From a virus (taxonomy: Duplodnaviria > Caudoviricetes), in the IMG/VR virus record IMGVR_UViG_3300032333_000153, positions 1-56,726 of that record: a stretch of 56,726 bases of DNA; one strand, given 5' to 3'. Below, piece after piece: positions 28,888 through 33,303 of the stretch. The translations under genes were made by a program, and so were the position numbers. The notes beneath the pieces were generated by a model. It saw nothing but the letters and a program-made list of their open reading frames with translations. It did no database searches and was not told where the DNA came from. Positions within the stretch are counted from its first letter, which is position 1. Every line of letters starts with the position of its first letter.

Positions 28888-29472
28888 GTGGCAAAATCGG
28901 GGCGGCCTTTGACATGCAGTGTCGTGCAAAATGTCGAAATATACGCACTGTGTGAACCGGGCACCGATATCGTTCGGTACATCGGAAAGGCAAAGTGCGC
29001 TCAAAAAAGGTTGATGACGCACATACGGGAAAGCCGACGGAGAAGCCGCCCCGTCAATTTATGGGTAAGGAAAGTTTGCGCATCAGGAAACGTGCCTTCG
29101 GTGGTTATCTTGAGGGTTGTTCCTGTTGAGGTGTGGGAAGATGAAGAAAGAAAAATCATAGCTGAGTATCGGCAAAAATATTCAAACCTGCTTAACGTCG
29201 CGGATGGCGGATCTATGCCTAAGTCAGATCCTAAAAAGTCATCCGTTCGGATAAAGCTCGTTGTTGAGCAGCGTCACAAGAGCATTATGAGGGTCTATCG
29301 CATCATTGAGTACTACGTGAGTATGTCTCGCAGGCTTTTCCCTCACAGAACTGAGCGCTATCTCGCTGTCAAAGAAACGTGGAGGGCTGCGGTAATGGTT
29401 GCTCGAGCGAATGGAAAGATGGATATTCTTGAGCAAAAAGCAGGAGGCTTCCTTGCCGCCCACTCCCGCTAA
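28888..29472 (+). CDS. GIY-YIG homing endonuclease-like protein
   Basis: IYALCEP...RYIGKA...KRL..H; E...I; LLNVADGG; AT-rich. Confidence 0.75.
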   Translation: MAKSGRPLTCSVVQNVEIYALCEPGTDIVRYIGKAKCAQKRLMTHIRESRRRSRPVNLWVRKVCASGNVPSVVILRVVPVEVWEDEERKIIAEYRQKYSNLLNVADGGSMPKSDPKKSSVRIKLVVEQRHKSIMRVYRIIEYYVSMSRRLFPHRTERYLAVKETWRAAVMVARANGKMDILEQKAGGFLAAHSR

Positions 29473-29941
29473 AAAGGGGCGTCCCCCAATTCGCCCTAAC
29501 CCACTTGATCCGGGTATTGTTGATCGGATCTGCGAAGGGCTTGTTGCCGGCGAGACCATCACAAAGGTCTGTGAACCGGAGGACATGCCGCACTTCACCA
29601 TGGTCTATCGGGCCATGGCGAAAGACGAAGATTTCGCTAACGCTATCGCAAAGGCTCGCGCGGCGCAGCAGGAGGCCGAAATCGACAAGATGATCGACAT
29701 CGCTGATTCGGCGACCGCCGAGAACGTGAATGTCGCGAAGCTGCGGATATGGGCTCGCCAATGGCGGGCAATGAAGCTCTCGCCTAAAAAGTACGGCGAG
29801 AAGGTGCATGCGGAAGTCACCGGCGCGAACGGCGGCCCGATCCAAACTCAGGCAACGGTTGTGGACGCGACCCAGTTAGAGCCAGCGCAGCGCGAGGCGC
29901 TGAAGCTGGCCCTGCTGGCGGCAAAGGAGAAAAAGGGATGA
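29399..29941 (+). CDS. terS: Terminase small subunit (start uncertain, possibly TTG 29429)
   Basis: GRP...ICEGL..GE...C....MP; AKLRI.ARQW.A.KL.PKKYGEK; EVTGANGGPI. Confidence 0.85.
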   Translation: MLERMERWIFLSKKQEASLPPTPAKKGRPPIRPNPLDPGIVDRICEGLVAGETITKVCEPEDMPHFTMVYRAMAKDEDFANAIAKARAAQQEAEIDKMIDIADSATAENVNVAKLRIWARQWRAMKLSPKKYGEKVHAEVTGANGGPIQTQATVVDATQLEPAQREALKLALLAAKEKKG

Positions 29942-30192: not shown

Positions 30193-30428
30193 TGCTCGAT
30201 GAGCTTGTCTCCACCGGGTGGCACTGGCAGTACGGTTGGCTGCGTCGCCCTGACCGCGACGACGCCCACGGCTATTGCTACGAGGAGCCTGACGGCGATC
30301 TCGTCTATACGCAGACGCTTCGCCACCGAAAGGCCATGCGCCTCGCCTGCTGGCGAGACGCGAAGACTGGCGAGAAGTATCTGGCGATCTGTCACGCGCC
30401 TGCGAAGGCGCACAAGTGGGCGAAGTGA
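30192..30428 (+). CDS. Hypothetical protein
   Basis: GWHWQYGWLRRP; coupled. Confidence 0.5.
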   Translation: MLDELVSTGWHWQYGWLRRPDRDDAHGYCYEEPDGDLVYTQTLRHRKAMRLACWRDAKTGEKYLAICHAPAKAHKWAK

Positions 30429-31436
30429 ATGGCGGCCTATTACAACGAGATCGAACCTTACGCAGCGCAGTGGCTGCGGAACTTAATCACTGCCGGCCTA
30501 CTGCCGCAAGGAGAAGTTGATGAGCGGTCAATTGTCGATGTTTCCCCAGACGACCTGCGAGGATTCACCCAAGCTCACTTCTTCGCCGGTATTGGCGGAT
30601 GGTCTCACGCCCTCCGTCTCGCCGGATGGCCTGACGATCAAGAAGTCTGGACCGGCTCTTGCCCGTGTCAGCCGTTCAGCGTCGCCGGGAAAGGACTTGG
30701 GGCAGCCGATCCAAGGCACCTGTGGCCGCACTTTCACCGGCTCATTGCCGCCCGCAGACCGCCTGTCGTATTTGGCGAACAGGTTAGTGGAGCGGCTGGG
30801 TATGGTTGGCTCGACGGAGTTCAGTCTGATCTGGCGCAAGAAAGCTACACCTGCGAAGGCTTCGATATACCGGCTTGCTCCGTTGACGCGCCGCACATCC
30901 GACAGCGGCTCTATTGGGTCGCAAGCGACGTGGGGAACGCCGACCGTTCAGGCGGCGCGTCATGCAACGCTTTCGCCAGCGGAACAGAAGCGCGCTCCGG
31001 GAAACCTGTGGGTTCAGGTGTATGCCGCGACATGGCCGACGCCAAGAACTTCAGACGAGAAGAATGGGCGCGGCAAGACGGGCAACAGATCGCCGGAAGC
31101 GGCAGCGAAAGCGGGCTGGACGCTGCCGGAAATAACACGGGCGACATGGCTGACGCCGACAGCGCAGCCATCCAACGGAGACGGCGAGAGCTTTCTCAGG
31201 CGGAAGGGGCGAAAGCCGGATGGGGCGATAACGGATCTTGGGGCGCTGGCGCTTTCTGGTCTGACGCAATCTGGCTCACCGGAGCAGACGGCAAGTCGAG
31301 GCGCGCTAAACCCGGAGTTCCCCTGCTGGCTCATGGGGTATCCGCCCGAGTGGGACGCTTGCGCGCCTACGGCAATGCCATCGTCCCGCAACTCGCGGCG
31401 GAAGTCATAGGCGCGTACATGGAGTGTAGGCCGTGA
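30429..31436 (+). CDS. C5 cytosine DNA methyltransferase, large (alpha) chain lacking motif IX
   Basis: HFFAGIGG, GSCPCQPFS, FGEQV, APHIRQRLYWV, C-terminal motif X RAYGNAIVP. Confidence 0.9.
   Translation: MAAYYNEIEPYAAQWLRNLITAGLLPQGEVDERSIVDVSPDDLRGFTQAHFFAGIGGWSHALRLAGWPDDQEVWTGSCPCQPFSVAGKGLGAADPRHLWPHFHRLIAARRPPVVFGEQVSGAAGYGWLDGVQSDLAQESYTCEGFDIPACSVDAPHIRQRLYWVASDVGNADRSGGASCNAFASGTEARSGKPVGSGVCRDMADAKNFRREEWARQDGQQIAGSGSESGLDAAGNNTGDMADADSAAIQRRRRELSQAEGAKAGWGDNGSWGAGAFWSDAIWLTGADGKSRRAKPGVPLLAHGVSARVGRLRAYGNAIVPQLAAEVIGAYMECRP
30517..31410 (+). CDS. Nested alternative-frame ORF: putative beta chain of the C5 MTase (three W-x-T-P repeats plus motif IX)
   Basis: 297 codons open; RBS AAGGAG at ~30508; ends GALNPEFPCWLMGYPPEW. 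Confidence 0.7.
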   Translation: MMSGQLSMFPQTTCEDSPKLTSSPVLADGLTPSVSPDGLTIKKSGPALARVSRSASPGKDLGQPIQGTCGRTFTGSLPPADRLSYLANRLVERLGMVGSTEFSLIWRKKATPAKASIYRLAPLTRRTSDSGSIGSQATWGTPTVQAARHATLSPAEQKRAPGNLWVQVYAATWPTPRTSDEKNGRGKTGNRSPEAAAKAGWTLPEITRATWLTPTAQPSNGDGESFLRRKGRKPDGAITDLGALALSGLTQSGSPEQTASRGALNPEFPCWLMGYPPEWDACAPTAMPSSRNSRRKS

Positions 31437-33073
31437 CCGCGCACGTCCTGCGCTTCAACGGCCAGCTCATCGACATTGAGGGCCAGCTACTCTCAATCTC
31501 CAAAGCGGAGTGCGAAGAGTCGCTGGCCGAGTTCATTCGGCAGGCGTGGCACATCATCGAGCCGGGCGCTGACTACATTCACGGCTGGCACATAGACTTC
31601 ATCTGCGAGCACCTCGAAGCAATCACGGACGGCGTCGAGCTGGACGACGGCTCGCCCTACAACCGCCTGCTCATCAATGTGCCGCCGGGCACCATGAAGT
31701 CGCTCATCACGAACGTCTTCTGGCCCTCGTGGGAGTGGGGGCCACGCAACCAGCCCCACCTGCGCTATGTCTGCGCGGCGCACTCGCAAGACCTGTCCAT
31801 CCGCGACGGCCTGCGCATGCGGCGCCTGATCTCGTCCGAGTGGTATCAGGCGCGCTGGGGCGACCGCGTCATACTGACCGGCGACCAAAACCAAAAGACC
31901 AAGTTCGAGACGACCGCCACCGGCTTCCGGCAGGCAACCGCGTCCGGCTCCATCACCGGCGCTCGTGGCGACCGGGTCATCATCGACGACCCGCATTCGG
32001 TCGAGGGCGCGAACTCGGACGCCATGCGCCGCTCGACGAATGAGTGGTTCCTCGAGGCCGTCCCGACGCGCCTCAACAATCCGAAGCGCTCGGCCATCAT
32101 CGTCATCATGCAGCGCCTGCATGAGGAGGACGTGAGCGGCATCATCACGGAGAAGCAGCTCGGCTACGACCACATCATGCTGCCCATGCGCTACGACGAA
32201 ACGCGCCACTGCGTCACCCTGCTGGGCGTCGAGGATCCGCGCACGGAGGATGGCGAGCTGCTGTTCCCGGCCCGGTTCCCCGAGGACGTGGTGGACCGCG
32301 ACGAGAAGGTCATGGGTCCATACGCGACCGCCGGCCAGTTCCAGCAGCAGCCGACGCCGCGAGGCGGTGGCGTCATCAAGGCGAGCTGGTGGCAACCGTG
32401 GGACGCAGACGCTTACCCGCCCATGGACTTCGTCATCGCCAGCTTGGACACGGCCTACACGACCAAGCAGGAGAACGACTATAGCGCGCTCACCGTCTGG
32501 GGCGTCTTCTCCCGCGACAACACCATCGCGCTGGCCAACAAGGTCGCCAGCCGCGACGGCGAGAGCATCGCCGAGATCCAGCGCTACTACGTCGAGGGCG
32601 CGCCCCGCGTCATGCTCATGGCGGCATGGCAGGAGCGGCTGGAGCTGTCCGAGCTGGTTGAGAAGGTGACTAATAGTTGCCAGCGCATGCGCGTTGACAG
32701 GCTGCTGATCGAGTCCAAGGCCGCCGGCATCTCGGTGGCGCAGGAGATCCGCCGCCTCTACGGCTCTGAGGACTGGGCCGTCCAGCTCATCAATCCGGGC
32801 GCGATAGACAAGCTGGCCCGGCTCTACAGCGTCCAGCACCTGTTCTCGGAGGGGCTGATCTACGCCCCGGATCGACATTGGGCGGATCTGGTTATAAGGC
32901 AGTGCGAAGTCTTCCCGAAGGGCAAGAACGACGACTTGGTGGACACCGTGGCGATGGCGCTGCGCCACCTGCGCGAGCTTGGCATGCTGTCCCGCTCTGC
33001 GGAACGGTCGGCGGAGATTGAGGATCAGCTCATGCAGCGCGCCGGCGGTCCCGCGCCGCTGTATCCGGCTTGA
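31433..33073 (+). CDS. terL: Terminase large subunit
   Basis: LLINVPPGTMKS, GARGDRVIIDDPH, MQRLHE.D, SLDTA...DYSA, KNDDLVD. Confidence 0.93.
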   Translation: MTAHVLRFNGQLIDIEGQLLSISKAECEESLAEFIRQAWHIIEPGADYIHGWHIDFICEHLEAITDGVELDDGSPYNRLLINVPPGTMKSLITNVFWPSWEWGPRNQPHLRYVCAAHSQDLSIRDGLRMRRLISSEWYQARWGDRVILTGDQNQKTKFETTATGFRQATASGSITGARGDRVIIDDPHSVEGANSDAMRRSTNEWFLEAVPTRLNNPKRSAIIVIMQRLHEEDVSGIITEKQLGYDHIMLPMRYDETRHCVTLLGVEDPRTEDGELLFPARFPEDVVDRDEKVMGPYATAGQFQQQPTPRGGGVIKASWWQPWDADAYPPMDFVIASLDTAYTTKQENDYSALTVWGVFSRDNTIALANKVASRDGESIAEIQRYYVEGAPRVMLMAAWQERLELSELVEKVTNSCQRMRVDRLLIESKAAGISVAQEIRRLYGSEDWAVQLINPGAIDKLARLYSVQHLFSEGLIYAPDRHWADLVIRQCEVFPKGKNDDLVDTVAMALRHLRELGMLSRSAERSAEIEDQLMQRAGGPAPLYPA

Positions 33074-33303
33074 TGGAGGTTGAAATCGTGAGCCAGCGAA
33101 TACTTGCCCGCGCCATCGTGGACGTGGAGGAGAGCCCAAGCCCGATCAAGCTCGGGCGCTTCCGTGTCGAGGTTTTCGGAGACGAGCCTCATGATTACGT
33201 CCGCGTCTATACCGTCCGGGCGAAATCTGATACTCTCGCCGCGCAGGAAGGTCTTCGGCTGTTTGTCGAGGAAATCGAGCTTTTACTTTCTGAAAAGGCG
33301 TAA
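33070..33303 (+). CDS. Small conserved protein between terminase and portal
   Basis: YTVRAKSDTLAAQEGL.LFVE. Confidence 0.55.
   Translation: MMEVEIVSQRILARAIVDVEESPSPIKLGRFRVEVFGDEPHDYVRVYTVRAKSDTLAAQEGLRLFVEEIELLLSEKA

Follow-up and report, generated by a model that had tools for sequence, protein, structure and literature searches.

The window analyzed here, the 56,726-bp stretch of IMG/VR record IMGVR_UViG_3300032333_000153, is a near-complete phage genome (estimated completeness, 98%) and contains a gene whose two overlapping reading frames most probably specify the two subunits of a DNA (cytosine-5) methyltransferase. The main open reading frame (ORF), termed alpha, encodes 335 aa on the plus strand, and a second ORF, termed beta, lies wholly inside it in the +1 frame and encodes 296 aa when read from an ATG, or 297 aa when read from the TTG directly before it. 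The arrangement resembles that of M.EcoHK31I, but the enzyme appears to be split differently between the two chains. A heterodimer had been proposed in the first-pass annotation of this gene. The coding of a second chain, the conservation of its frame, an internal Shine-Dalgarno (SD) site with an ATG, the colinearity with gp70 of Mycobacterium phage ShiLan and a structure prediction of the complex, all of them computational, point in this direction. From these, we infer that beta is translated, that the two chains associate and that both are needed.

Two chains and their single-chain relatives

Alpha carries the features of the large domain of a C5 methyltransferase. It matched Pfam PF00145 with 53.1 bits (cut-off, 22; E 4.5e-14) over aa 69-169 only, scored 32 bits against NCBIfam TIGR00675, which is under the cut-off of 100.65, and matched phrog_363 over its full length (aa 1-333, E 9e-81). 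It also matched residues 71-170 of M.HhaI (E 1.4e-6), with motifs IV-VIII aligned. The segments that we take to be motifs I, IV, VI, VIII and X, their names and consensus being assigned from general knowledge of C5 methyltransferases, were invariant or nearly so among 62 homologues (alignment A2). Residues P79, C80, Q81, P82 and S84 of motif IV, G116, E117, Q118 and V119 of motif VI, and P155, R158 and R160 of motif VIII were invariant. Motif VI is ENV in classical C5 methyltransferases and is present here as a variant (Table 1). The middle of alpha had been described at first pass as uninformative, next to the catalytic motifs and motif X, and the conservation values bear this out (Table 1). 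Residues 166-270 gave no family match in a Pfam scan, and no target-recognition region or motif IX was found in the alpha polypeptide. Alpha does not pass as a one-chain C5 methyltransferase, because its middle is unconserved and a motif IX-like element lies in the +1 frame.

The nested ORF and its AAGGAG site were found exactly where they had been placed. ATG 30520, which is written into the D-E codons of alpha, is a likelier start than TTG 30517, because it is spaced 6 nt after AAGGAG. From this start, beta would comprise, in order, an unstructured leader of ~80 residues, a helix and hairpin, three W-x-T-P modules of ~36 residues and the element LNPxFxxWLMGxPxEW. In a model of beta alone, no secondary structure was predicted before residue 82, with a predicted local distance difference test score (pLDDT) of <50 at residues 1-3, 10-35 and 48-74. 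It was followed by a helix at 82-96 and strands at 104-110 and 116-122, with a pLDDT of 81-85 at residues 101-120. In the alignment of beta chains (A1), G98, S99 and T111 of the helix-hairpin were invariant, as were L264, P266, W271, L272, M273 and G274 of the C-terminal element. The latter, LNPEFPCWLMGYPPEW, was confirmed at its reported place and is motif IX-like by position and pattern. Beta matched phrog_1008 (E 2.3e-23) with aa 8-287 on profile positions 6-286 of 329, a family that is labeled 'DNA methyltransferase' in PHROGs without a tested function.

The relation between the two chains was indicated by single-chain enzymes of actinobacteriophages. A single frame of ShiLan gp70 encodes motifs I-VIII, followed by three LLPTPxAxDGxGG modules, by LAPAFSEWMMGWPAGW and finally by IIGNGVVPQ. 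By profile comparison, alpha residues 72-170 aligned with gp70 64-161 (probability 99.5%, E 2e-22) and beta residues 171-285 with gp70 237-356 (probability 94%, E 1.2e-7), with the motif IX-like element of beta on LAPAFSEWMMGWPAGW, the element just before motif X. The same plan was found in 20 relatives from IMG/VR (alignment A3), which have 1 to 5 or more modules. One of these relatives was modeled with AlphaFold2 and had a C5-methyltransferase fold (Foldseek, M.HhaI, E 1.1e-13). These enzymes therefore have the same parts in the same order as alpha/beta (xPTPxAxD modules, LxPxFxEWMMGxPxGW, GNGVVPQ). Unlike the alpha/beta gene, they use one frame only, with 6-14 stops in the +1 frame, and they lack the conserved N-terminal YYNEIxPYAAxWLRNLI helix and the C-terminal segment (aa 271-313) of alpha. 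Because gp70 holds alpha-like and beta-like parts colinearly in one frame, beta can be matched to the small domain, which comprises target recognition and motif IX. Judged by position, beta is this domain, and the alpha chain represents the large domain, in which a spacer occupies the site of the small one.

Two further PHROGs families match the ends only, phrog_32758 (154 positions) matching alpha 292-326 and phrog_31772 (145 positions) matching beta 244-296. These partial matches are a hint that some phages may carry the chains in shorter or more divided forms.

Conservation of both frames

To be selected by alpha similarity alone, loci were taken as the best 80 of 562 confirmed genome loci, which is not a random sample. 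The motif IV pattern was located in 71 of the 80, and the remaining 9 were read by eye; the motif patterns used at the outset failed to pick up 7 of the 84 loci selected by beta, and 13 and later 9 of the 80 selected by alpha. Stops in close homologues had been named in advance as the finding that would speak against a nested gene. Both frames were open in 79/80 alpha-selected loci. All 71 pattern-found loci had a +1 ORF of 247-389 codons (median 306), compared with a median of 70 for the +2 frame, and the pair was present in 8 of the 9 loci read by eye. In the other one (L114:759-1850 and 1279-2265), alpha stops shortly after motif VIII and the beta frame is open for 329 codons, which may reflect a frameshift, an error of assembly or yet another variant.

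The absence of stops was quantified against synonymous shuffles. Between about alpha codon 30 and motif VIII, 64 loci had 0 stops in the +1 frame, compared with 115.5 expected from shuffles of alpha (minimum 90 over 100 shuffles). In the unconserved middle, 52 beta-selected loci had 0 stops in the alpha frame, compared with 174 expected from shuffles of beta (minimum 151). The 21 single-chain relatives that served as the negative control (62-68% GC) all had stops in the +1 frame, in the numbers given above, and their longest +1 run had a median of 33% of the gene.

These results bear on the possibility that a high GC content left the +1 frame open by chance, its conservation being a shadow of that of alpha. 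The alpha gene of the window has 62% GC, the shuffles gave a null mean of 137 codons for the window, with values reaching 247 for the GC-richest loci, and the first ~80 residues of beta look like shadow conservation, all of which would suit this possibility. Against it, none of 200 synonymous shuffles of the window alpha reached the 307-codon stop-free +1 run (maximum 298). The frame was open over 262-315 codons in genes of 52-55% GC, for which the null means were 91-166, and it was also open in Paenibacillus and Vequintavirus phages. Moreover, beta is better conserved than alpha in the middle of the gene, the single-chain relatives of the same GC content show 6-14 stops, and an in-frame homologue of the beta segment is present in the single-chain enzyme. 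A chance ORF is thus contradicted by the low-GC pairs, the pooled stop counts, the conservation, the single-chain control and the gp70 homology, and we give it practically no credence.

The pair is widely distributed among phages and prophages. A tblastn search with beta returned 240 phage records, 179 of which covered at least 80% of beta, and the beta match lay inside the alpha match in every record among the matches listed for both queries. Both frames were open in Vibrio phage Marilyn (alpha 308 aa, beta 261 aa; 52% GC in the gene), E. coli phage ESSI2_ev129 (336 and 307 aa; 55% GC) and Cyanophage Cy-LDV1 (410 and 334 aa). The Firmicute phage Tadhana of Paenibacillus (L165:946-2019 and 1151-1855) has an alpha of 357 aa and a beta of 234 aa with WGTP, WATP and WPTP modules. 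The E. coli Vequintavirus CarlMeissner (Bas48 of the BASEL collection; L346:1471-2355 and 1688-2278) has an alpha of 294 aa and a short beta of 196 aa, which starts at about alpha codon 73 and has one WLTP module. A profile of beta matched 29,990 cluster representatives at E <= 1e-3, a number that fell to 16,896 at E <= 1e-10 and to 7,895 at E <= 1e-30, and the weaker matches may in part be single-chain enzymes.

It had been supposed at first pass that standard gene callers would miss the second chain, and this holds only in part. The beta of the window is already a called 296-aa entry (P0001) in a protein collection, and two GenBank phage records annotate both chains, namely that of Tadhana, in which both are annotated as cytosine methyltransferases (TADHANA_54 and TADHANA_55), and that of Xanthomonas phage PhiXhv-28, in which both frames are annotated as CDS. 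In CarlMeissner, only alpha is annotated. Two cytosine-methyltransferase genes are listed in a Paenibacillus phage paper, with no remark on them in the portion available. Beta is often picked up by gene callers, and what it lacks is a family name. Beta has no Pfam or NCBIfam family, and its relatives, likewise without a Pfam family, are named 'hypothetical protein'. If both chains are made and needed, pipelines that bar nested genes would report one chain, and some of them only beta, so that methyltransferase activity and specificity in phages would be mis-assigned.

Constraint was then compared along the gene, conservation being expressed as the majority-residue frequency in 68 non-identical genes. 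The third codon position of alpha is the second of beta, and the first of alpha is the third of beta. The entropy of the alpha third position was 1.38 in the alpha-only head and 1.27-1.61 over the first ~100 codons of beta, and it dropped to 1.10 over the beta helix-hairpin (GSTxFxLxWK). In the C-terminal overlap, entropy at alpha positions 1, 2 and 3 was 0.82, 0.67 and 0.99. In the middle of the gene, the first codon position of alpha, and hence the third of beta, had the highest GC (0.75 vs 0.60; 117 loci), and conservation at the first two W-x-T-P sites was 0.47-0.50 for beta and 0.23-0.31 for alpha. Region-wise conservation (Table 1) and entropy therefore divide the gene into four constraint regimes. 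Over the beta leader, the sequence is driven by alpha, with beta just kept open, and over the beta helix-hairpin, which lies on alpha motifs VI-VIII, both chains are constrained. Over the modules and the alpha linker, it is driven by beta, with alpha just kept open, and where the motif IX-like element of beta lies on the alpha C-terminal segment, before motif X, the constraint is again double.

The head of beta has a conserved candidate start. Beta-frame ATGs clustered at three offsets around the V-D-x-R-S motif of alpha, and 83/122 loci had such an ATG with an SD-like core 4-10 nt upstream in the start zone, compared with 77/1310 (6%) of equal-sized control windows further downstream. In 37/122 loci, the Arg-Ser pair of alpha is coded as AGGAGC or AGGAGT, which provides an SD for an ATG 8 nt downstream. 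This start also bears on programmed ribosomal frameshifting, by which ribosomes would leave frame 0 for +1 downstream of motif VIII and return to it ahead of motif X to make one polypeptide, the overlaps being by-products. Joining the frames at these two points does give the order of the single-chain relative. Frameshifting would, however, leave unexplained why the beta frame is open for ~100 codons upstream of motif VIII, why alpha is open through its unconserved middle (the two stop counts of zero above) and why an SD and ATG are conserved at the head of beta. We know of no precedent for two programmed shifts in one gene, and we regard this mechanism as highly improbable.

Table 1. Sequence features of the alpha/beta gene (window positions, or alpha codons where so stated).
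Feature	Position	Strand	Remark
Alpha CDS	30429..31436	+	C5-methyltransferase large domain (motifs I-VIII), unconserved linker, conserved C-terminal segment, motif X
Alpha motif I, FAGIGG, aa 51-56	30579..30596	+	AdoMet-binding; columns nearly invariant in A2
Alpha motif IV, PCQPFS, aa 79-84	30663..30680	+	Catalytic Cys80; aligns to M.HhaI PCQ
Alpha motif VI variant, FGEQV, aa 115-119	30771..30785	+	Aligns to M.HhaI FMENV
Alpha motif VIII, APHIRQR, aa 154-160	30888..30908	+	Aligns to M.HhaI
Alpha linker, aa 166-270	30924..31238	+	Unconserved, stop-free, read across beta modules
Alpha conserved C-terminal segment (aa 271-313) and motif X (YGNAIVPQ, aa 314-321)	31239..31391	+
Beta CDS, +1 frame	30520..31410	+	296 aa from ATG 30520 (297 aa from TTG 30517); nested in alpha
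AAGGAG, SD-like site of beta	30508..30513	+	Within alpha Q-G-E codons
Beta leader, ~aa 2-81	30520..30759	+	S/P/T/G-rich, predicted unstructured
Beta conserved helix and hairpin, aa 82-122	30760..30882	+	Includes GSTEFSLIWRKKATP
Beta W-x-T-P module 1, ATWGTP...	30925..31026	+
Beta W-x-T-P module 2, ATWPTPRTSDEKNG...	31027..31140	+	Aligns to LLPTP module of single-chain relative
Beta W-x-T-P module 3, ATWLTPTAQPSNG...	31141..31260	+	Aligns to LLPTP module of single-chain relative
Beta motif IX-like element, LNPEFPCWLMGYPPEW, aa 264-279	31306..31353	+
Conservation, alpha codons 1-165			Alpha 0.62-0.87; beta 0.29-0.62
Conservation, alpha codons 166-270			Alpha 0.17-0.31; beta 0.47-0.50 at first two W-x-T-P sites
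Conservation, alpha codons 271-330			Alpha 0.55-0.80; beta 0.54-0.78

The proposed heterodimer

We propose that one mRNA would be read in two overlapping frames to give two methyltransferase subunits. Alpha, read in frame 0 from ATG 30429, would be the large catalytic domain with motifs I, IV, VI, VIII and X, and its middle 105 residues would be a mere spacer that must stay open. Beta would start from its own SD and ATG 30520, within the conserved G-E-V-D-E codons of alpha. It would dock through its motif IX-like element on motifs X and VIII and the N-terminal helix of alpha, and also through its helix-hairpin. The most likely origin would be a single-chain ancestor in which the small-domain segment was shifted into the +1 frame, and both frames would have been kept open thereafter across ~90% of the gene.

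A structure prediction of the pair had been suggested as a check at first pass, and the prediction for alpha with beta 85-297 scored 0.90 (0.89, 0.91 and 0.90 in the individual runs), compared with 0.00 for the best of 3 controls. The partner had a pLDDT of 57-60, and at least 59% of contacts were common to the runs. In the model, beta 269-275 contacts alpha motif X (314-321) and motif VIII (154-156, at beta 272-273), and beta 279-283 contacts the N-terminal helix of alpha (residues 15-24). The predicted interface also includes the beta helix-hairpin and much of alpha 274-333, as well as module 2 (beta residues 169-181) and the start of module 3. The model supports the binding of beta to alpha and does not show it.

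A number of results weigh against a two-subunit methyltransferase. Beta matched nothing in Pfam or NCBIfam, whether searched as a single protein or as a profile, and the searches of PDB sequences with the protein and the profile listed only a response regulator (E 0.7) and an aminotransferase (E 0.023), neither of which is convincing. In Pfam scans of the C terminus of beta alone, of Tadhana beta and of the single-chain C terminus, the C5-methylase model missed the motif IX/X region. Because this model never reaches the region, the name 'motif IX' for the beta element rests on position and pattern and not on a scored match. Over its first ~80 residues, beta is itself under little sequence constraint, and AlphaFold2 gave beta alone a mean pLDDT of 53. 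In the modeled single-chain relative, the repeat region had a pLDDT of <50, and Foldseek confirms the general fold only and is uninformative on the modules. In shuffles of individual genes, only 31/68 genes had 0/200 shuffles reaching the observed run, and three GC-rich genes had 44, 48 and 88 of 200. The pooled stop counts and the single-chain control were used because this per-gene longest-run shuffle is weak in GC-rich genes. As for the complex, the 0.90 mark was reached by 58/80 solved complexes and by 2/110 mismatched pairs, counts that hold only roughly since our own alignments were used. Its pass may also mirror what the model has retained of the way in which domains pack in solved structures of single-chain enzymes, M.HhaI among them.

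Some of these results would suit a beta that is real and translated but is not a methyltransferase subunit, being instead, for example, a regulator or a counter-defence factor that shares the DNA for compactness. Besides the lack of a Pfam, NCBIfam or convincing PDB sequence match, such independence would fit the fusion of the modules to unrelated methyltransferase domains, as in P0123, in which a beta-like part is followed by a Dam domain (PF05869), and in P0124, in which two tandem beta-like units are followed by an N6/N4 methylase (PF01555). On the other hand, the beta profile aligns between motifs VIII and X of the single-chain enzyme, which is the site of the small domain, and its most conserved element packs on alpha motifs X and VIII in the model. 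Beta also co-occurs with alpha in 79/80 alpha-selected loci, and among 19 viral loci related to P0123, the alpha frame was open beneath all 13 beta ORFs detected. We therefore consider an independent beta quite unlikely and retain the two-subunit methyltransferase as the best explanation.

Two further chains have unusual architectures. P0128 is beta-like with an inserted HNH_3 domain, and in L260:2-952, the beta ORF continues for 228 residues beyond WLMG while the alpha frame still shows GNA. Like P0123 and P0124, they may represent beta chains that have become joined to the methylase gene next to them. Relatives of P0124 were also searched for, and nearly all of the matches were to the N6/N4-methylase half of this protein.

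W-x-T-P modules, known systems and genomic context

The three gcgac(g/a)tgg repeats that had been noted at first pass are present at 30925, 31027 and 31141 and read ATWGTP, ATWPTP and ATWLTP in the beta frame. GCGACRTGG had 7 matches in the window, compared with 2.1 expected by chance. Across 139 loci, 370 W-x-[TSN]-P heads were found at a median distance of 36 residues from one another. The consensus is (L)AGWPTPTAxDxKGG, the heads being conserved and the interiors variable. A variation in repeat number, which had been suggested as something to look for in homologues, was indeed seen: the 71 alpha-selected loci had no module (3 loci), 1 (3), 2 (21), 3 (29), 4 (12) or 5 (3), and the single-chain relatives likewise ranged from 1 to 5 or more.

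It was initially suggested that each module is an independent target-recognition domain, which would make the enzyme tri-specific, and that modules are exchanged by recombination at the repeat heads. The varying count and the conserved heads with variable interiors are in line with this, and a model for it exists in the multispecific Bacillus phage C5 methyltransferases of the SPR and phi3T type, single polypeptides in which each module reads a different target. Like the present pair, these enzymes are phage-borne, and their variable region, which lies between motifs VIII and IX, contains tandem modules. The modules of the pair share one consensus, which suits a structural repeat equally well. 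In addition, three loci have no module by the pattern used and still keep the pair, the alpha interface of the model takes in module 2 and the first part of module 3, so that the modules do not all stand free, and the DNA repeat heads are just 9 nt, which is short for homologous recombination. Because of the shared consensus, the same repeats in single-chain enzymes and the position of module 2 in the alpha interface, we lean towards the modules being a repeated structural unit of one DNA-binding domain, and consider independent target-recognition domains unlikely. Tri-specificity and cassette swapping are doubtful and speculative. It is similarly doubtful that the modules are portable cassettes whose number and identity set how many DNA motifs are methylated. 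In that case, the cassettes would lie in a frame where the partner reads a spacer, and they could be gained, lost or swapped as in-frame indels of ~36 codons with the catalytic chain untouched. This would amount to a rapidly re-targetable anti-restriction enzyme family across thousands of phages.

The closest known system is M.EcoHK31I, which belongs to a type II restriction-modification system of E. coli. As described in two papers (PMC2836561, PMC3404938), the gene of its alpha chain also encodes, fully in a different frame, the beta chain, which contains motif IX, its alpha chain keeps motifs I-VIII, motif X and the target-recognition domain, and both chains are needed for activity. Its beta is so small that a construct with a 67-residue N-terminal deletion was still put to use in targeted methylation (PMC2836561). 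A nested beta in another frame is thus common to both systems. As compared by description, M.EcoHK31I keeps the target-recognition domain in alpha, whereas the phage beta would carry the whole small domain across ~90% of the gene, and the middle of the phage alpha is, unlike that of M.EcoHK31I alpha, an unconserved spacer. M.AquI is also described as a natural C5 methyltransferase of two polypeptides, split near the variable region (PMC3404938). It has a simple cut with motif X on the second chain, whereas in the phage pair motif X is on the first chain and the genes are nested. A phage gene entirely embedded in another in a different frame is described for the Rz/Rz1 spanins of lambda (PMC11445585, PMC9409062). 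Those are short proteins of unrelated function, whereas alpha and beta overlap over ~890 nt and their products are apparently two domains of one enzyme. No description of the nested pair of this family was found in the full-text literature, a scope that left out most subscription journals, supplements and REBASE.

The family looks phage-borne and orphan, no search for a cognate restriction gene having been made. The enzyme probably methylates phage DNA as a protection from host restriction, because phage orphan methyltransferases act in this way. If both chains are made and needed, the pairs would constitute a very large family of long, same-strand, fully nested genes in double-stranded DNA phages, with an overlap of ~890 nt that is in parts under double constraint. 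M.EcoHK31I would then change from a single textbook curiosity to a widespread design, and the family would be a clear case of an enzyme whose division into two subunits came about through a change of frame, with the overlap then holding the arrangement in place. Many viral 'hypothetical proteins' without a Pfam family would also gain a name. The E. coli phages of the BASEL collection include members of the family, which makes the question directly testable.

In the window, alpha lies between a terS gene and an ORF of 546 aa. The small-terminase gene (29399-29941) matched PF20901. The 546-aa ORF (31433-33073) had no match in a Pfam scan, and we take it, on its position only, to be the large terminase. 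At 30426-30431 (TGAATG), the stop TGA of an upstream 78-aa ORF is directly followed by the ATG of alpha, and the GTG start of the 546-aa ORF shares 4 nt with the alpha stop (GTGA, 31433-31436). The order of terS, methyltransferase and presumed large terminase has the layout of a translationally coupled operon. On the opposite strand, an ORF of 548 codons (31493-33139) mirrors the 546-aa ORF almost end to end and is probably a GC-rich antisense open frame.

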